In this document: one piece after another, positions 1,674 to 36,382 of the stretch
How positions within the stretch are numbered: the first letter of the stretch is position 1
Layout: every line of letters begins with the position of its first letter
UHGV virus genome: UHGV-0205584
DNA length: 36,382 nt
Direction: 5' to 3' (one strand)
Origin: a virus
Program-made: the position numbers and the translations under genes
The notes under the pieces: model-generated
Told to the model about the DNA's origin: nothing
Seen by the model: the letters and a program-made list of their open reading frames with translations, nothing else
The model's database searches: none

Positions 1674-2198
1674 ATGGCGACTAAGACGAAGAAAGCAGAA
1701 CCAAAGAAAAGGCGTAGAGTAGGGCGTACGCCTAAATATGAGCAATGGCTTGAGCCAGATAATTTGATTAAGCTAGAGGGTTGGGCGCGTAATGGCCTCA
1801 CCGATGAACAAATAGCCAACAATATCGGCATTAATCGAACTACTTTATACGCATGGAAAGCAAAATATACCGACTTTTCAAACGCATTAAAAAGAGGTAA
1901 GGAAGTTATCGACATCATGGTTGAGAACGCCTTGCTTAAAAGTGCTATGGGATACAAATATGATGAAGTGGTGAAAGAGCGGATATATAACCCAGAGACA
2001 GGCGAGAGCGAAATTGTAGAGGTGAAACGCACTACTAAGGACGTGGCACCTAACTCGACCTCTTTAATATTCTGGCTTAAAAATCGACGTCCCGCAGATT
2101 GGCGAGACACTAAGAACATAGACGCAGCCGTTGAGGTTAAAAATCCATTTGACGGAATTGATACGGCTGATATTAAAAAACTCATAGGCGATGACTAA
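1674..2198 (+). CDS. terS: Terminase small subunit (HTH type)
   Basis: WARNGLTDEQIANNIGI HTH and IFWLKNRRP.DWRD motif; SD GAGGTG; upstream of terL. Confidence 0.85.
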   Translation: MATKTKKAEPKKRRRVGRTPKYEQWLEPDNLIKLEGWARNGLTDEQIANNIGINRTTLYAWKAKYTDFSNALKRGKEVIDIMVENALLKSAMGYKYDEVVKERIYNPETGESEIVEVKRTTKDVAPNSTSLIFWLKNRRPADWRDTKNIDAAVEVKNPFDGIDTADIKKLIGDD

Positions 2199-2231
2199 AC
2201 TCGATATACACACATGAAAGGTGGTGAGGAT

Positions 2232-3671
2232 ATGCAAATTCGAGATAAGAAAGAAACAATCATAGAACTAGCTAAAAGGGAACTCGCACGGCGCGAGTTT
2301 TTTTATTATTGTCAGTTAAAAACGGGTAATTTTTACAAAAAAAGCAGAAAATACCTAGTCAATCTATGCAATGAGTTAGAGCATTTTATCAAGAATGATG
2401 AATATAACGTTCTTATCATGAATTTGCCTCCGTAGCCTCGACATGGTAAGAGTTTAACGGCGCAGCACCTTACGCAGTGGTGGCTAGGGAATAACCCAGC
2501 CGCCAAGATAATGACTGGTTCGTATAATGAGACATTATCTAAAATGTTTAGTAAATCGGTAAGAAACGCAATTCAAGAGAATAAGGCCGATGATGATATT
2601 ATCGTATTTAGCGATGTATTCCCTAGTGTTCATGTAGCAGTAGGCGACGCACAGGCTCATCTATGGAGCCTAGAGGGGTATACGAATTCATATCTAGCTA
2701 CATCGCCAACAGGTACAGCGACAGGGTTCGGCTGTTCCTTGATGATTATTGACGATATTATTAAAAACAGCGAAGAGGCCTATAATGCCAGCGTGAAAGA
2801 AAAGCACTGGGAATGGTTTACCAATACCATGCTTTCACGTCTCGAAGAGGGCGGCAAGATTATAATTATCATGACGCGCTGGGCGAGTGATGACCTAGCA
2901 GGCCGAGCTATTGAACATTTTAAAGATGACCCGTTATTTAAGGCAAAAGTCATTACAATGAAAGCCTTACAAGATGACGGCTCAATGCTATGCGAAGAGG
3001 TGCTATCTAAGGCCTCGTATATGTCAAAGGTTCGCGCTATGGGCGAAGATATAGCTAGCGCCAACTATCAGCAAGTACCGATTGACCTCAAAGGGTGCTT
3101 GTACACAAATATCCTCACATATGACACATTGCCAAGAGACGCAAAAGGCAATGTGTTATTTTCTTGTATCAAGAACTATACAGATACAGCCGATACTGGC
3201 AGCGACTATCTAGCAAGTTTTACTTACGGAGTATATGAGGGAGAGGCGTATATCCTTGATGTAGTTTATACAAAGGACGCTATGGAAACCACAGAGCCAG
3301 AGGTGGCGGATATGCTGCATAGAAACGGCGTGAATGTGGCGGATATAGAAAGTAATAACGGCGGCCGAGGGTTTGGCCGTAACGTTCAAAGTATACTCAA
3401 ACAGAAATACAATTCTAATAAGTGCGTGATTAATATGTTTCATCAAAGCGGCAACAAAATAGCCCGCATTCAATCCAATGCTACATGGGTTATGAACCAT
3501 GTATATATGCCTAAGAATTGGCGCGATAGGTGGCCTCAGTTGGCTGCTGACATTACGAGATACCAACGGGAGGGCAAGAACGCACACGATGACGCGCCCG
3601 ACGCACTCACAGGGATAGCAGAGAAGATAAACGCGCCACAGGTTAGAAGTGGCCGCATTAACATATATTAG
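2232..3671 (+). CDS. terL: Terminase large subunit, interrupted by one in-frame TAG (2433-2435) in Walker A
   Basis: ORFs 2214..2435 and 2511..3671 are in the same frame: NLPP*PRHGKS...MTGSYNE; Walker B LMIIDD; C-terminal nuclease HDDAPDA; SD AAGGTGGTG before ATG 2232. Confidence 0.9.
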
Positions 3672-3683
3672 AAAGGGGAATAC

Positions 3684-5096
3684 ATGGCAATTATTTATTC
3701 TAATCCTCGAACAGATGAATACGAGATACTGCATGACGCCTATTATGGTAGCGGTATGTTCGCCAGCGGTGCGGCAATCACACCGCACAGACGCGAGGGT
3801 ACCGATTCGATTAAATTTAGGCGTCAAATTGCATATTATCTAAACTATACAGGGCCTATACTCAACGCGAGCGTAGACCCTATTTTTAAAGATGAAATTA
3901 AGCGAGAATATAGCAAATCTGTATTATTTGATGAATTCATTAACGATGTAGACCGAGAGGGTACTACATTACAGGAATTCACTCGTCAAAATGCAACGCT
4001 TGCGAAACTCTACGGCGTGATGTACATCGTAGTTGATAATGTAACAGAATTCGGCAACTCGCTGGCGGATACGTTGGCCAATCGTTCTATGCCTTATTTG
4101 ACGGCGGTAGAACCCAAGAATGTAATGAATTTCACATTCGATGATAATGGCCGATTATCTGTATTTACCTATGCGACATACTTGGCAAATGCGGACGGCA
4201 CAGTCAAAACGCATTACCATACTTGGACGCCTACCTCATGGAGTATCAAAGACGGCGACGGCAAGACGATTGGAGAGGGTGAGCATAACATCGGACGCAT
4301 TCCTATTGTGCAGTGGTTTGGCCGTGCTGCTCGTAAGCGGGATATATTACCACCGCCCGAGTATTTGAGTATCGCCAAAACGAATGCACATGTTTATAAT
4401 CTATGCTCATTATTGTCTCAAATCCTTTACAATCAAACATTCTCAATCTTGACTATGCCAGTAGATAGTAACGGCCTTTCTGATATAACGATTGGCACGG
4501 ATAACTTACTCGCATATCCTCATGATTCAGCAAGGGCGCCCGACTTTATCGCACCAGATAAGGGGCCAGCTGAGGTGCTTATGGCTCAAATTGATAAGCT
4601 AATCAATGAAATGTACCGCATGAGTGGTATTGATAGCGTTATCGGCGTGCAGCAAGCAAAAAGCGGCGTTGCTAAACAATGGGACTTTGAGCGCACTAAT
4701 CAGCGACTTTCTGATTTTGCTGTACAGTGCGAAAACGCAGAATATGATATTATTGCACTCTATAAATTGTGGAGCGGTGATAATATTGAGTATTCGTGCG
4801 AATACCCTCGAGATTTCAAAGTCAACGATGTAACGGAAAGCCTAACACAGGCGCAACAGGCGAAAGACCTAGAATTTAATTCTGATACATTCGACAGCGA
4901 AATCTTGAAAAAAGTGATTGACGCTTACATGCCTAACCTTGATAAGGAAGTTAAAGACGTGATTATTAATGAGGCACAGCAAGCAGCAGATGAGGCACGT
5001 CAAAATAAAGCGTTTGATGAGTTAGACAGCGGCGCACCGCATGGCGATAATGAGGGCGTAGACGATGAAGAAAACAGCGACGGCGAAAACGATTGA
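3684..5096 (+). CDS. Portal protein
   Basis: 470 aa following terL; SPP1-like size, SGVAKQWDF motif, acidic C-terminus. Confidence 0.85.
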   Translation: MAIIYSNPRTDEYEILHDAYYGSGMFASGAAITPHRREGTDSIKFRRQIAYYLNYTGPILNASVDPIFKDEIKREYSKSVLFDEFINDVDREGTTLQEFTRQNATLAKLYGVMYIVVDNVTEFGNSLADTLANRSMPYLTAVEPKNVMNFTFDDNGRLSVFTYATYLANADGTVKTHYHTWTPTSWSIKDGDGKTIGEGEHNIGRIPIVQWFGRAARKRDILPPPEYLSIAKTNAHVYNLCSLLSQILYNQTFSILTMPVDSNGLSDITIGTDNLLAYPHDSARAPDFIAPDKGPAEVLMAQIDKLINEMYRMSGIDSVIGVQQAKSGVAKQWDFERTNQRLSDFAVQCENAEYDIIALYKLWSGDNIEYSCEYPRDFKVNDVTESLTQAQQAKDLEFNSDTFDSEILKKVIDAYMPNLDKEVKDVIINEAQQAADEARQNKAFDELDSGAPHGDNEGVDDEENSDGEND

Positions 5097-9990: not shown

Positions 9991-10380
9991 ATGAAAACAG
10001 TTACATGTAATTTATTTATAGACGGCGATTATATTATGTTCAACATTCAGCGCCTCATGGAATTAGAGGCGGCAGTAGGTAAGCCTATTGGTGAACTTTT
10101 ACAAATGCCGACATGGCCTATTAATAGTATTGTTTCGGGTTACGCTATCGGCATGAAACACCATAAGCGGAACCCTCAGCAATACTTTGAATTGATTGAC
10201 GATTTACTTTCTAAGGAAGATAGCGATGTAAGCTTGTTGACACTGCAAGCGCCATTGATGAAAGCGATTGTTGCGAGCGGAGCATACGGCATGAAAATGT
10301 ATTATAAGATGTTCCCCGATGAACTTACAAAAGCCGATAAATTGGCAATTGAGGAAGAGGCCGAACAACTAAAAAACTAG
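9991..10380 (+). CDS. Tail assembly chaperone (lambda G-like)
   Basis: Between tail tube and tape measure genes; ends CTA AAA AAC TAG. Confidence 0.8.
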   Translation: MKTVTCNLFIDGDYIMFNIQRLMELEAAVGKPIGELLQMPTWPINSIVSGYAIGMKHHKRNPQQYFELIDDLLSKEDSDVSLLTLQAPLMKAIVASGAYGMKMYYKMFPDELTKADKLAIEEEAEQLKN

Positions 10381-10400
10381 ACGGGGGCCAACGCGCCCCC
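10371..10400 (+). promoter_or_regulatory. Programmed -1 frameshift signal
   Basis: A AAA AAC heptamer 10371-10377, 5-nt spacer, GGGGGC/GCCCCC stem 10383-10400; the -1 frame is open into ORF 10416..10706. Confidence 0.8.
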
Positions 10401-10706
10401 TCTTTTTCTTTATGGGTGAGAAATGCCGAAGAAATTGCGTATAGTGTGCTGGAGTTAAAACCTTGGGAATTAATGCGCTTACAGCCTATTGAGTATAGAA
10501 AACTCGTACAGGGTTATGAGCGACGTTGCAAAATCCAAGACCAGAATAGAGCGTTCTGGGTAACAAACATCATGAACACGCAATTATCAAAAGCGATTGA
10601 GCCGAAGAAATTTATAGATATTTTATATCCGCCTACAGACGCACAAAAGCGCCAAGATGAGGCGGATTTTATTCGTGAATTTAGAGAGGCAGGGGGTGAA
10701 ATATAG
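10377..10706 (+). CDS. Tail assembly chaperone frameshift extension (GT-like)
   Basis: -1 frame LDGGQRAPSFSLWVRNAEEIAY...LKPWELMRL; no good SD of its own. Confidence 0.75.
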   Translation, partial: LDGGQRAPSFSLWVRNAEEIAYSVLELKPWELMRLQPIEYRKLVQGYERRCKIQDQNRAFWVTNIMNTQLSKAIEPKKFIDILYPPTDAQKRQDEADFIREFREAGGEI

Positions 10707-24029: not shown

Positions 24030-24347
24030 ATGTTAGAAATTATCAACCAATACGCACCAGTAAAAAAACACCTTGCAACAGTCGAAACACCTTACGAGGC
24101 ACTATCTTATATCGTTGATTTATCCGCAAACACTATGGACGTGGACACCATTATAGATGACCCAGAAAGCGGCTTGATTGAAGATATGCCCGAACTCATC
24201 GAGCAAGTAAAGAATGGCCTTGAAGTGTTGATGAACGCCGACGGCGAATATGCTGTATTTAACCCTAAAGAATTAACAGTTGATACAGTCAACACATTAC
24301 TCTATGATGTGCGCATGAGTGATTATAAGGTTATCGAGGTAGAATAA
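24030..24347 (+). CDS. Acidic accessory protein (105 aa), candidate anti-defence protein
   Basis: Very D/E-rich; own promoter; SD GAAAGGGG; 3' end overlaps integrase 3' end. Confidence 0.75.
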   Translation: MLEIINQYAPVKKHLATVETPYEALSYIVDLSANTMDVDTIIDDPESGLIEDMPELIEQVKNGLEVLMNADGEYAVFNPKELTVDTVNTLLYDVRMSDYKVIEVE

Positions 24348-25887
24348 GGCGTATAGGGTAAAGCGAGCCGCCTATATAAAAGTGGTTCGCTTTATTGTAT
24401 GAGTTGCCCACCAATATGCTAAAATGCGAACCGCTTGCAGATTGCTCAGAGAATTCTGGCAATTCACTCTTATAATTAAATACGATTTCAACCCTATCAC
24501 TATGTATGGTTACGTTTTTGATAAAAGTATCGAGAATACGCGAACGGCCTGCTTTTGTGGTAGGGTTTTCGTTTGCCATTCTTTCAAGAAAATACTCTAT
24601 ATGTTCGGCTGTAAATTTGATAGGTGAGATTATACTTTCATGGTTCGCTTTTTGCTCGAGTAGGTTTTGACGTTCTTTTTCTAGGTTTTCAATTTCGGCT
24701 TTTAAACGCTCATTAATAAAACCCTGTTTAATGGCCGTCATACAATTATTTAATTCTGTATCAATAGCTTTAATTTTCCCCTGTAAGCCCTGTATGGCCG
24801 TTTTAGCCTCTTGGGCGGTATGATTATATCCATTCATTACTAAATCGACTATACGAGCGATAATTTGGGGTTGTTTTAGGATTTCAAGCGTTCTATTTAT
24901 GACTAAATCTTCTAACTCATCGCGGCGTATGTTTGGCGCGCTGCATGTGTGATATTTGCGGCGGTTGGTGCATACATAATAATGATGTTTCTCGCCGTTG
25001 CGTGATGTAGCAGTAGACCCCATATAATGCCCGCCACATTGGCCGCATATCAAGCGACCACATAAATTATACATTTCACTTCTCCGTCCTTTATTCTTAA
25101 TTCTAGTAGGTAGTATCCGCTGCACCTCATCGAATACATCACGGGCGATAATAGGCGGGATAGAATCCTCGATTCTAATATCGCCCCATTGATACACGCC
25201 GATATATTTCTCATTGCTCAATATATTGCGTATGACGCTGTACGAAATCTTGCCGCCTCGTTTAGTTGTATATCCTTTACTATGCAAAATATCCGCTATT
25301 TTAGCCAGTGAGTACTGTTTTAAATATAGGCTATATATTAACCTTACCGCCTTGGCCTCGTGAGCATTCACGGCTAAATGGTGGCTTTCTGTAAGGTCAT
25401 AACCTAGAGGAACGGCCGAGCCGTTCATCTTGCCTTTAAGGGCGTTTTCAGTCATGCCGCGCTTGACCTTTTGCGATAGCTCTACAGAATAATATTCAGC
25501 CATACCCTCGAGCATGCTTTCTAAAATGATACCCGCAGGCTCGTTGGTGATGTGTTCCTTGGCACTTAACACTCTAACCCCATTACGGCGTAATATGCCC
25601 TTATATTTGGCGCTATCCTCACGGCTACGGCTGAATCTATCTAATTGATACACTATTACATAATTAAATGTTTGATTCGCGCTATCACGAATCATCTGTA
25701 AGAATTCTGGGCGGTTATCCGTTCGCGCCGATAAAGCCCTATCTGTATATATTTTAGTAATAAGAATTCCCTCACGTTGAGCGTATTCGGTGCATTCCCG
25801 TATTTGCCCCTCTATGGATTCGTCCCGTTGCTTATCGGACGAGTAGCGTGCATATATCACGCCTGTTTGTAAATCGGTATTATTCAT
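24331..25887 (-). CDS. int: Large serine recombinase (integrase), 518 aa
   Basis: YARYSS, LDRFSR catalytic domain, recombinase domain, CGQCG...YYVC...C zinc ribbon, coiled coil; start MNNTDLQ after GAAAGGAAATCACACA. Confidence 0.95.
   Translation of the reverse strand: MNNTDLQTGVIYARYSSDKQRDESIEGQIRECTEYAQREGILITKIYTDRALSARTDNRPEFLQMIRDSANQTFNYVIVYQLDRFSRSREDSAKYKGILRRNGVRVLSAKEHITNEPAGIILESMLEGMAEYYSVELSQKVKRGMTENALKGKMNGSAVPLGYDLTESHHLAVNAHEAKAVRLIYSLYLKQYSLAKIADILHSKGYTTKRGGKISYSVIRNILSNEKYIGVYQWGDIRIEDSIPPIIARDVFDEVQRILPTRIKNKGRRSEMYNLCGRLICGQCGGHYMGSTATSRNGEKHHYYVCTNRRKYHTCSAPNIRRDELEDLVINRTLEILKQPQIIARIVDLVMNGYNHTAQEAKTAIQGLQGKIKAIDTELNNCMTAIKQGFINERLKAEIENLEKERQNLLEQKANHESIISPIKFTAEHIEYFLERMANENPTTKAGRSRILDTFIKNVTIHSDRVEIVFNYKSELPEFSEQSASGSHFSILVGNSYNKANHFYIGGSLYPIRLILPR
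24380..24436. other. Candidate attP inside the 3' end of int
   Basis: Inverted repeat AAGTGGTTCGC...GCGAACCGCTT (GGTT..AACC span 49 bp) centred on GCCCACCA, a tRNA 3'-end-like sequence. Confidence 0.65.
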
Positions 25888-25918
25888 TGTGTGATTTCCT
25901 TTCAAATTGTATAAGTAT

Positions 25919-25944
25919 AGCCCCCTTGATAGGGGGCTTTTTTT
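25919..25944 (+). terminator. Plus-strand intrinsic terminator upstream of int (antisense orientation)
   Basis: AGCCCCCT-tgat-AGGGGGCT followed by a run of T. Confidence 0.75.
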
Positions 25945-26422
25945 ATTTCTTATGCTTACTATTATATTTTGCTTGCGCCTCGGCCATTTTGCCACTTTGA
26001 ACGGCGAAATTAAAAGCATATATTGCTGTTTTGTACTCGTCGGAACCCTCGACGATTGGAACTATAGGCGTAGGCGTGATTGTGCCACCTATCACATAAT
26101 CAGCGTTGCGCGCGAAGTTTGTCTCTCTATCTACTTGATAGAGTACGGCGTAAGGCTTGCCAGAGCCGTGCGGGTCAAGCACATAATGAAAATGGTTTAA
26201 CTTCCATGTAATATATGGCTTGCTTGTGTCATCTTGGCTGGTATATAAGAGTATTTCCACACTTCCGCCGTCATAATTCTTTACGTCTAAATCAGCCCGC
26301 ACGCTAACGTTTACGCCGTTGGCCGTAGTGTAAGCTGGTACAAATGGCGCGTTTGGATTATGTGCCATTACTGGAATTGATAAAAATGAGCATAATGCAG
26401 CCGCAATAATCAACTTTTTCAT
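25943..26422 (-). CDS. Secreted/periplasmic protein in lysogeny module (superinfection exclusion candidate)
   Basis: Signal peptide MKKLIIAAALCSFLSIPVMA; lies between repressor and integrase. Confidence 0.7.
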   Translation of the reverse strand: MKKLIIAAALCSFLSIPVMAHNPNAPFVPAYTTANGVNVSVRADLDVKNYDGGSVEILLYTSQDDTSKPYITWKLNHFHYVLDPHGSGKPYAVLYQVDRETNFARNADYVIGGTITPTPIVPIVEGSDEYKTAIYAFNFAVQSGKMAEAQAKYNSKHKK

Positions 26423-33918: not shown

Positions 33919-34326
33919 ATGTTAGTGGAAGATAAGAGTAAATATTGCTGGGTTACGCCCAACGGAATCGGCGGCCCAGAGGATAGCGTAGAGCAGGCAG
34001 TCAAAAGCTATCTATGTTTACATAGACCAGATGAGAACGCAGATATTGTTATAGGAATCGGACACCCTAGTTTTTACATTCCCGACGTTGACGGGGACAG
34101 CGTGATTGAAAGCGTTATAGACCAATTACCAGATGAAGTCTATGACACGGACGAGGATTATTTACATGACGTCAAACGTGAGCATGTAAACGAATTAAGT
34201 GAAGAACTAACAAAGGTATTCCGTGCATGGGTTAACCGCCACGGATACCACCATAGAGGCATGTTTGTAGAAAACAGTGAGACACATCATATTAAGCGAT
34301 ATGAGTATAAGGAGATAACGAAATGA
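33919..34326 (+). CDS. Hypothetical protein
   Basis: 135 aa, SD AAGGGG. Confidence 0.7.
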   Translation: MLVEDKSKYCWVTPNGIGGPEDSVEQAVKSYLCLHRPDENADIVIGIGHPSFYIPDVDGDSVIESVIDQLPDEVYDTDEDYLHDVKREHVNELSEELTKVFRAWVNRHGYHHRGMFVENSETHHIKRYEYKEITK

Positions 34327-35744
34327 ACACAAAATATTTAGCAGCAATCATGACAATTACAGCATTAACAGCACCAGCATATGCAGCTGGTACAAATAAT
34401 ACAATAGGCGGCACCGATAACATCGCCACGGCTAATAGTGCGGCGGTGTTTGGCTATCAAAACCAAACAAACGCAAATAATACGCTAACATTCGGGGAGA
34501 ATAACATCACGAACGGAACGAATGCGTTCGCAGGCGGTAATAATTCCAAAGCCGAGGGAAGAAATACATTCGCATTCGGTAGTCATGCCGAGGCGCTAAC
34601 CGAATACACTTATGCGATTGGTTCGCAGGCTAAAACGTCGGCCTATGACGCGATTGCGGTAGGAAACGGCGCTTATGCAGGCGGCGAGAGTACTATTGTT
34701 ATCGGAAGAACAAACACAGTCAACGGGAAAAATTCCGTTGTAATCGGTGCCAATAATATGCAAGTAGACGGCGGGCAGTCAACTGTACTCGGATATAATA
34801 ACCGCGTTGATAATTCACAGGAACAGACAATTCTAGGCGCTAACAGTCAAACGGCTGGACAGGGCGCGACAGTTATCGGAACACATGCAAAAGCAACAGC
34901 TATTGACGCCCTAGCGATTGGCAATAATACAATCGCCGACAAGTCGAACAGTGTGGCGATTGGTACTAACAGCGTTACAGACGAGGCAGTCGCAACTCGT
35001 CAAGCGATTGTAAATGGCGTAACGCATGTTTTTGCTGGCGATTCACCTCAATCCGTTGTATCTGTAGGCAGTAAGGGCCATGCTGGATATGGTGGCGTGC
35101 AATATTACACTCGACAAATCACAAACGTCGCAGCGGGGCGAGTAGACCCTAACAGCACCGACGCCATTAATGGCAGTCAGCTGTATGCTGCTTATGACGA
35201 AATCGGCCACAACGGCACAGCAATTCAAAATTTAGCCAATACTACCAGCCAACAATTTGCAGCGGTAAATAACACTATCACCGCACAAAATACGCGTATC
35301 GGTGATAATACGGCGGCGATTTCGCAACATGAAAGCCAATTACAAAATCATGAGGCTAGAATTACAACGCTAGAACATAACACAGCGGGACAGATTTCTC
35401 ATGTATTGAGCGAAGTCGCAAAAACAGGCGCGGCTAATGCAGCACTTTCCGCTTTGCACTATCTCGGCTATAACGCAGATGACAAATTAACATTTGCAGC
35501 TGGTTATGGACATTATAAAAATGCTAATGCGGCCGCTATTGGTGCATTCTACGCGCCGAATGAACATGTATTATTCAACATCGGCGCAACGCTTGGCGGC
35601 ACTGCAATGATTAACGCTGGCGTATCGTTCCGATTAGGTAAAGGCAGCGAGTACGAATTGAACCATAAAGGCAAAATCGCGCAACTTGAGGCACTAGTAA
35701 ATGAATTAATCAATGAAGTGGCAGAATTGAAAGAGGCGAAATAA
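34323..35744 (+). CDS. YadA-like trimeric autotransporter adhesin
   Basis: Signal peptide, AxG head repeats, RQITNVAAG...TDAINGSQL neck, stalk, beta-anchor (AAGYGHYKNANA.AIG.FY.PNE...GVSFRLG), C-terminal coiled coil. Confidence 0.92.
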   Translation: MNTKYLAAIMTITALTAPAYAAGTNNTIGGTDNIATANSAAVFGYQNQTNANNTLTFGENNITNGTNAFAGGNNSKAEGRNTFAFGSHAEALTEYTYAIGSQAKTSAYDAIAVGNGAYAGGESTIVIGRTNTVNGKNSVVIGANNMQVDGGQSTVLGYNNRVDNSQEQTILGANSQTAGQGATVIGTHAKATAIDALAIGNNTIADKSNSVAIGTNSVTDEAVATRQAIVNGVTHVFAGDSPQSVVSVGSKGHAGYGGVQYYTRQITNVAAGRVDPNSTDAINGSQLYAAYDEIGHNGTAIQNLANTTSQQFAAVNNTITAQNTRIGDNTAAISQHESQLQNHEARITTLEHNTAGQISHVLSEVAKTGAANAALSALHYLGYNADDKLTFAAGYGHYKNANAAAIGAFYAPNEHVLFNIGATLGGTAMINAGVSFRLGKGSEYELNHKGKIAQLEALVNELINEVAELKEAK

Positions 35745-36160: not shown

Positions 36161-36373
36161 ATGTACAATCTCAATGAATTGATAAAAATAGGAATTGATG
36201 AAATTGTAAGTTATACGGATTATAGAGGGTTCGCAATAGTTGAATTCAAATGCATGGATAAAATAAGCCCAGATAAATTACAAAAGACATTGCAGTATGT
36301 CAGAGAAATTACAAAAGGGGAACCATGCAACGAGATATATGTGAAAGCCAATATTTTAATTGATAGAAATTGA
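36161..36373 (+). CDS. Hypothetical protein
   Basis: 70 aa, SD GAGGTG. Confidence 0.65.
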   Translation: MYNLNELIKIGIDEIVSYTDYRGFAIVEFKCMDKISPDKLQKTLQYVREITKGEPCNEIYVKANILIDRN

Positions 36374-36382
36374 GGTGATAGT

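Follow-up and report, generated by a model that had tools for sequence, protein, structure and literature searches.

To our knowledge, programmed bypassing has been proven in very few natural genes. In bacteriophage T4 gene 60, a stop codon follows the take-off codon and a re-pairing codon lies just ahead of the site at which translation resumes (PMC5009743). The account of the T4 MobA element describes a bypass insert that protects against a nuclease and outlasts it (bioRxiv 10.1101/2022.08.31.505936). In synthetic stop-hops, a stop has matched codons on either side and nine nucleotides yield one amino acid (PMC5009743; bioRxiv 2024.12.09.627546); stop-hops that lack a stimulator are said to occur at a low level (bioRxiv 2024.12.09.627546). 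For hopping over an in-frame stop, a 2016 review mentions no known occurrences (PMC5009743). The terminase of Streptomyces phage Hau3 has been presented as a candidate bypass at UUA, a rare sense codon, together with stem-loop and Shine-Dalgarno signals and a proposed role in regulation (PMC10732093). The mitochondrial byps of Magnusiomyces are short bypassed inserts with a sometimes imperfect match between take-off and landing codons (PMC5009743).

Here we describe a 6-base, stop-containing insert in the Walker A motif of the large terminase gene, terL, of virus genome UHGV-0205584 (36,382 nucleotides; the whole stretch is called the window below). We estimate the probability that ribosomes hop over this insert at roughly three in four. 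The insert is real and conserved, and the comparisons below favour a terL bypass like that of T4 gene 60/MobA, lacking the long gap and the stem-loops. The likeness to gene 60 includes the position of the stop and of the predicted re-pairing codon. It extends to an upstream HNH gene in part of the family, to pairs of nearly identical genomes of which only one has the element, to an insert that would outlast the endonuclease and, in some alleles, to a possible replacement of the N-terminal stretch up to the insert. The differences are that the gap is 6 or 7 nt here and 50 nt in T4, that no stem-loops were found, and that the landing codon is synonymous or near-cognate, whereas in T4 it is identical to the take-off codon. 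The endonuclease, unlike that of MobA, is a NUMOD4-HNH protein of about 190 residues; the host gene is terL, not otherwise split, in siphophages of Firmicutes.

The 6-nt form has exactly the geometry of the synthetic stop-hops, but those constructs worked at a low level, whereas here the hop would occur in nature and an essential gene would depend on it. With Hau3 the locus shares short non-coding blocks (7-10 nt in the Hau3 account) placed where a large terminase is conserved; it differs in terminase family, and no endonuclease link is described in the Hau3 account. Magnusiomyces byps differ in that they involve mitochondrial, not bacterial, ribosomes, an unused codon and many sites. The open literature searched, a body that excludes supplements and the original genome papers of Tuc2009 and 9874, holds no description of the insert.

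The interrupted terL and its surroundings

The window represents a temperate siphophage whose genes include terS and terL along with those for portal, head, tail, integrase and replication, and its nearest relatives among bacterial genomes are in Veillonella. The features around the insert are listed in Table 1. At 2421-2453 the sequence is AAT TTG CCT CCG TAG CCT CGA CAT GGT AAG AGT (N-L-P-P-stop-P-R-H-G-K-S), and the frame remains open past the TAG until the stop at 3669-3671; the sequence-only reading had described both points exactly. The window has no terL besides the interrupted copy. Its start, ATG 2232, is preceded by AAAGGTGGTGAGG, a strong Shine-Dalgarno sequence. The bases upstream of ATG 2511 contain no purine-rich Shine-Dalgarno sequence, in agreement with what had been said of this alternative start. 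Counted from ATG 2232, the hop product would have 477 residues. A sequence comparison of the window's TerL with solved structures gave 0 matches. The 5' part of the gene also matches the N-termini of PHROG 30251 and 4758. The terS gene stops short of terL, whereas the two overlap in most uninterrupted relatives, and the intervening spacer is without counterpart in aligned intact alleles.

Table 1. Features of the window from terS to the portal gene.
Feature	Coordinates	Strand	Basis
terS, small terminase subunit	1674..2198	+	PHROG 309, E 5e-61
terS-terL spacer, 33 nt, own Shine-Dalgarno sequence at 2217-2229	2199..2231	+	sequence
terL 5' part, 67 codons, ending N-L-P-P	2232..2432	+	PHROG 8148 over whole piece
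CCG, predicted take-off codon	2430..2432	+	sequence
TAG stop within Walker A	2433..2435	+	sequence
CCT, predicted landing codon	2436..2438	+	sequence
terL 3' part, R-H-G-K-S to end (remaining ATPase and nuclease domains)	2439..3671	+	
Portal gene, next in intact packaging/head module	3684..5096	+	PHROG 145, E 1e-67

Elsewhere in the window, a large serine integrase of 562 residues (24331-26019, minus strand) lies beside a repressor-like gene and marks the phage as temperate. A 473-residue ORF in the replication region (34323-35744, plus strand) has the YadA head, stalk and anchor domains of a trimeric autotransporter adhesin. The window ends at 36370-36382 with GAGGTGATAGT and begins at 1-3 with ATG, which fits a complete circular genome cut between a Shine-Dalgarno sequence and its start codon. 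At 10380-10416, between two ORFs of tail-chaperone size that precede the tape measure gene, a short inverted repeat, rich in G+C, precedes a run of T; this ORF junction is a frameshift site in many phages.

Distribution and classes of the insert

Among the best 80 of 226 confirmed IMG/VR matches, 50 carry the insert, 29 have plain PPRHGKS and one lacks the region. The 50 comprise 48 PP-stop-PR and two PP-stop-LR forms, with TAG in 45 and TAA in five. Because the insert is common to 50 of these 80 relatives, it is not a product of chance or of assembly error. It was also found in two Veillonella genomes, and contigs from two unrelated DNA runs span the site and are identical to the window over 2430-2441. 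Cultured phages Tuc2009, 9874, D3906, CHPC926, 98101, 49801, 98202, D4840 and D6890 have the PP-stop-LR form; in the Lactococcus phages D4840 and D6890 the stop is TAA. Of these carriers, Tuc2009, 9874, D3906, CHPC926, D4840 and D6890 are dairy phages. D4840, D6890 and D3906 are listed as forming plaques on their hosts (PMC9576995 Table 2), and CHPC926 is described as virulent, at 2e9 PFU/ml (PMC5311409). Each of these four phages has a single match to the window's TerL, and all four matches contain the insert. The sequence-only reading had proposed looking for a Pro-stop-Pro insert in related phages, and the search was positive; its objection that the insert might be a defect unique to this genome fails, since the insert recurs in relatives and its carriers form plaques.

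In GenBank, the interrupted terL is split into two genes. Records of Tuc2009, 9874, phiCT9441A, 98101, 49801 and 98202 label the resulting 64-65-residue piece "terminase small subunit", and in several of these records the real terS is labelled transposase or hypothetical. PHROG 8148, a 64-residue "small terminase", is the TerL N-terminus, a common mis-annotation that the split gene explains. We also collected 140 short N-terminal protein clusters (27 from one listing and the others from the 120 best of 259 in a second), of which 56 stop exactly at PP and 37 at PPR; these are proteins only, and some may be contig ends. Fragments in three clusters (P0078, P0079 and P0127) stop at PPRH and could mark a third insert class one codon on, or contig ends. 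In six others (P0040, P0107, P0109, P0115, P0121 and P0140) the PP of the TerL N-terminal fragment is followed by the same foreign peptide, (K/R)LARMTLIWYNNT, which suggests a larger element at the same spot; no DNA behind the fragments continuing PP-KLARMTLIWYNNT was found in IMG/VR.

Once duplicates were removed, the 404 loci came down to 241 distinct junctions, of which 166 are intact, 67 carry 6 nt and eight carry 7 nt. Inserts are over-represented in this set, as several of the scans were aimed at them. The first class, CCN-CC(A/G/T)-TAG/TAA-C(C/T)(T/A)-Arg, adds 6 nt in frame. The second, CCN-CCN-CG(A/T)-TAA/TGA-N-(C/T)G(C/T)-His, adds 7 nt out of frame; its eight distinct contexts come from clostridial and gut phages including phiCT9441A, and its landing codons are CGC, TGC or TGT. 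In both classes the codon before the stop recurs, exactly or nearly, right before the normal protein resumes, and a hop would restore the wild-type protein. In a variable-gap search of metagenomes and of 401 and 112 genomes, the terminase gaps detected all measured 6 or 7 nt. Four other non-standard gap matches (G215, G018, G066 and G065) were judged by eye to be chance. Chance pattern matches outside terminases were dropped: L091, L100, L125, L130, L142, L345, L346 and L351; likewise L359, L379, L389, L399, L400, L426 and L429; and seven of eight metagenome matches.

The take-off codon in the 67 six-nt contexts is CCA in 35, CCG in 29 and CCT in three; the stop is TAG in 59 and TAA in eight; and the landing codon is CCT in 52, CTT in 13, CCA in one and CTA in one. 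C directly follows the stop in all 67. In 75/75 interrupted contexts a stop lies right behind the take-off codon, so that the A-site codon is never the UUA of Hau3; the searches behind most of these contexts required a stop, and a scan accepting any codon gave no sense version. Landing and take-off codons are synonymous in 57/75 contexts (the window included), near-cognate by G:U pairing in 18/75 and identical in 1/75. The anticodons expected to read these codons are UGG for Pro and ICG for Arg. Each of the 18 landing codons that are not synonymous (CTT 13, CTA 1, TGC 3, TGT 1) differs by C-to-T, facing a G of the expected anticodon. The 44 tRNA matches in a Veillonella parvula genome, an incomplete set, include one tRNA-Pro (UGG). 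On the tree, the C/T state of the landing codon flips at least five times in the first class and at least three times in the second. C-to-T is the commonest mutation, and the landing-codon pattern is thus supportive, not decisive. If the hop is true, these sites amount to a natural set in which landing codons are either matched or G:U-paired.

Proposed translation across the stop

In the mechanism we propose, the ribosome would stall with peptidyl-tRNA-Pro on CCG and TAG in the A site; the tRNA would then release CCG, slide six bases and re-pair on CCT. Decoding would go on from CGA and yield the normal L-P-P-R-H-G-K-S within a 477-residue TerL. The earlier claim of a stop-hop gains comparative support from the interchange of TAG and TAA, the lack of a sense-codon version, the 7-nt class and the plaque-forming carriers; its landing on a synonymous codon fits the window (CCG to CCT) and does not extend to the 14/67 six-nt contexts with near-cognate CTT or CTA as the predicted landing codon.

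Weak termination may aid the hop, given the Pro-Pro ahead of the stop and the C after it; C-terminal Pro is described as slowing release at stop codons in E. coli (PMC7246954). The Pro-Pro is accordingly a candidate nascent-peptide stimulator, and the invariant C suits readthrough equally with a hop. A KKSRKY stretch 26-31 residues ahead of the stop resembles the KKYK signal of gene 60, but we do not count it as a signal because similar residues occur in intact homologues. Across 18 interrupted sites we found no shared, conserved and significant RNA structure (folding z-scores -2.2 to +2.3), and hop efficiency may therefore be low. An enzyme needed in few copies could presumably bear this, and the persistence of the insert in 50/80 close relatives without the nuclease allows, but gives no evidence for, a use of low TerL yield. 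If the hop is true, this would be a natural in-frame stop-hop in an essential gene, and ordinary bacterial ribosomes would hop a stop often enough for a lytic cycle with no dedicated RNA structure. The proposal is directly testable, since carriers grow on tractable dairy hosts and 98%-identical uninterrupted sisters exist (Tuc2009 versus TP901-1C).

Several lines of evidence indicate that the gene is alive and that its Walker A loop does not take extra residues. Short downstream frames occur in 0/73 closed interrupted alleles and in 4/165 intact ones. In 50 interrupted Veillonella-type copies, pooled pairwise dN/dS (from pairs that are non-independent) is 0.057 before the stop, 0.109 from the stop to the first Met and 0.039 after it; the sequence 3' of the stop is under purifying selection. 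PPRHGKS had been taken as the usual motif of the family, and 120/120 full-length close homologues indeed keep N-x-[PG]-P-R-H-G-K-S. A recognisable loop was present in 112/150 distant representatives, all 112 with normal spacing; the 38 that the loop pattern did not match are left out of this count. Arg does not invariably follow PP in these 112 (Gln 14, Gly 5, Ser 1, Thr 1). The any-codon scan returned 82 matches: 74 terminases, all with TAG or TAA, and eight non-terminase sense-codon matches, which we regard as chance. The sequence-only reading had held that homologues with a sense codon at the position of the stop would speak against a hop; such a codon was seen in 0/74 terminase matches.

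The alternative that deserves most attention is a leaky stop, at which a near-cognate tRNA reads TAG or TAA to give P-P-X-P/L-R-H-G-K-S, the 7-nt class being a +1 frameshift and the loop tolerating two residues. The C after the stop in every six-nt context and the slowing of termination by Pro (PMC7246954) would suit it; landing codons are often unmatched, with take-off and landing identical in only 1/75, and readthrough and frameshift together would add exactly two residues in both classes. We nevertheless consider it unlikely. No sense-codon version occurs in the 74 terminase matches, the 120 close or the 112 distant proteins, all three stops are used at the site, and the window has no tRNA while TAG ends 5/35 of its other genes. 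The second class shifts the frame (Arg-stop-N-Arg), so that readthrough cannot repair it; a +1 frameshift there would lack slippery re-pairing at CGA-TRA, and 4/8 sites would place before HGK a Cys, a residue unseen there in intact proteins. Amber suppression or genome recoding was rejected on the same grounds of tRNA content, TAG usage, and TAA and TGA at the site.

Removal or skipping of the insert at the RNA level, by splicing-like excision or transcriptional skipping, would likewise give the wild-type product in both classes by normal translation. We think this very improbable: the window gives no match to Rfam, a ribozyme would need far more bases than the insert has, and the ends of the insert vary (TAG, TAA or TGA; 6 or 7 nt). 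The insert always starts with an in-frame stop, which is relevant to the ribosome alone and argues against an event on the RNA. Two sequencing runs that may derive from RNA do not reach the site. A group I or II intron or an intein was rejected, as the insert is 6 nt with a stop and without an Rfam match. Marginally less credible still is a two-chain TerL, in which the 67-residue piece assembles with a restarted C-terminal piece as in split T4 gene 39/60 or Aeh1 nrdA. GenBank does annotate two genes, and 6/8 sites of the second class have an in-frame ATG 7-13 codons ahead of HGK, though with no clear Shine-Dalgarno sequence. However, the first start codon lies at least four codons beyond His in 67/67 six-nt contexts; restart would lose HGK[ST], yet RHGK[ST] is retained in all 67 and the stretch is under selection, and two second-class alleles (L423 and L425) have no start codon at all. 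Finally, one could invoke defective prophages with a dead gene, or faulty assembly, because many carriers are metagenomic. This reading is largely refuted already and we give it next to no weight, for the insert recurs across studies and hosts with downstream frames intact and in phages that form plaques.

Endonuclease, spacer and origin of the insert

terS overlaps terL in 139/166 intact alleles; 11 have a 1-nt gap and one a 148-nt gap, and terS was not located in 15. Overlap occurs in none of the interrupted alleles: 64 have a spacer of 10-159 nt, seven a whole ORF, and terS was not located in four. Insert and spacer agree in 9/9 independent pairs (p about 0.004). Similarity to an endonuclease, whole or partial, was found upstream of 9/75 interrupted and 0/162 intact alleles, so that an upstream HNH gene missing from uninterrupted alleles, as with MobA, is a trait of the family and not of the window. 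The spacer ORFs encode one endonuclease family, with NUMOD4 and HNH_3 in 7/7 and 55-75% identity to that of one allele, L157. The protein matches PDB 1u3e (E 1e-17), which we take to be I-HmuI; Pfam PF22083 also names I-HmuI. The architecture is that of I-HmuI-type homing endonucleases, but the gene is free-standing between terS and terL.

The endonuclease is present in 11/50,697 phage records (E<1e-35), in each case just ahead of a terL that is annotated as two pieces; the insert junction was read in four of these 11. Tuc2009, 9874 and phiCT9441A retain a C-terminal remnant. In the window itself no endonuclease gene or similarity is left, only the 33-nt spacer. The endonuclease profile gave no match in 380 genomes of the window's host class, one in 401 genomes, at a contig end with no terL in view, and one in 331 genomes, a more distant homologue two genes upstream of terS. 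Related endonucleases are also located away from terL.

On a quick tree of the TerL C-terminal region (98 representative rows) the insert changes 13 times, at least 10 of the changes being forced by well-supported branches, and interrupted alleles are dispersed next to near-identical intact sisters. The N-terminal tree (56 columns, mostly of low resolution) leaves interrupted alleles ungrouped, with 14 changes. Tuc2009 and its closest intact sister share 60-67% identity across the 180 nt that lead up to the insert and 85-100% beyond it; for Tuc2009 and 9874 together the values are 60-72% and 85-100%. This step suggests that a foreign tract ends at the insert in these two phages. The step is weaker in L157; in Veillonella the divergent tract is longer, extending about 270 nt past the insert; and L160 shows no step, with 90-98% identity to its intact sister on either side of the insert.

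These data point to origin from a mobile homing-endonuclease cassette rather than to a device that limits TerL and, if the hop is accepted, we regard such a cassette as the probable source of the insert. A free-standing NUMOD4-HNH endonuclease encoded between terS and terL would cut uninterrupted alleles near Walker A and copy itself in together with a replacement terL 5' end, the final bases of which are the insert. The insert would make the carrier immune, and immunity would aid spread. The window phage would have lost the endonuclease gene and kept the insert, as in T4 gene 60; its spacer may be a residue of the lost HNH gene, being at the same position as in related interrupted alleles. 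With more reserve, we lean towards the full proposal for a widespread family of Firmicutes phages, among them laboratory models such as Tuc2009: that their packaging ATPase, an essential enzyme, is produced through a natural hop over a stop by 6 or 7 bases that needs no signal and tolerates G:U on landing, and that a mobile homing endonuclease, having invaded Walker A repeatedly, has this minimal bypass as its means of immunity. If true, the logic of T4 mobA/gene 60 is generalised, a homing endonuclease shielding a highly conserved target by an insert that is invisible at the protein level.

One allele, L258, has an intact Walker A and yet a 148-nt spacer with its own Shine-Dalgarno sequence, as in interrupted alleles; a precise loss of the insert is possible there. 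Walker A is NIGPRHGKS in Streptococcus phage IPP27 (L147) and in L148; the IPP27 ORF ahead of terL is labelled "putative HNH endonuclease", yet has a terS-like end. Phage phiCD119 (L083, 200-1750) has an intact Walker A and two later frame breaks in terL, which may be sequencing errors or another interruption.
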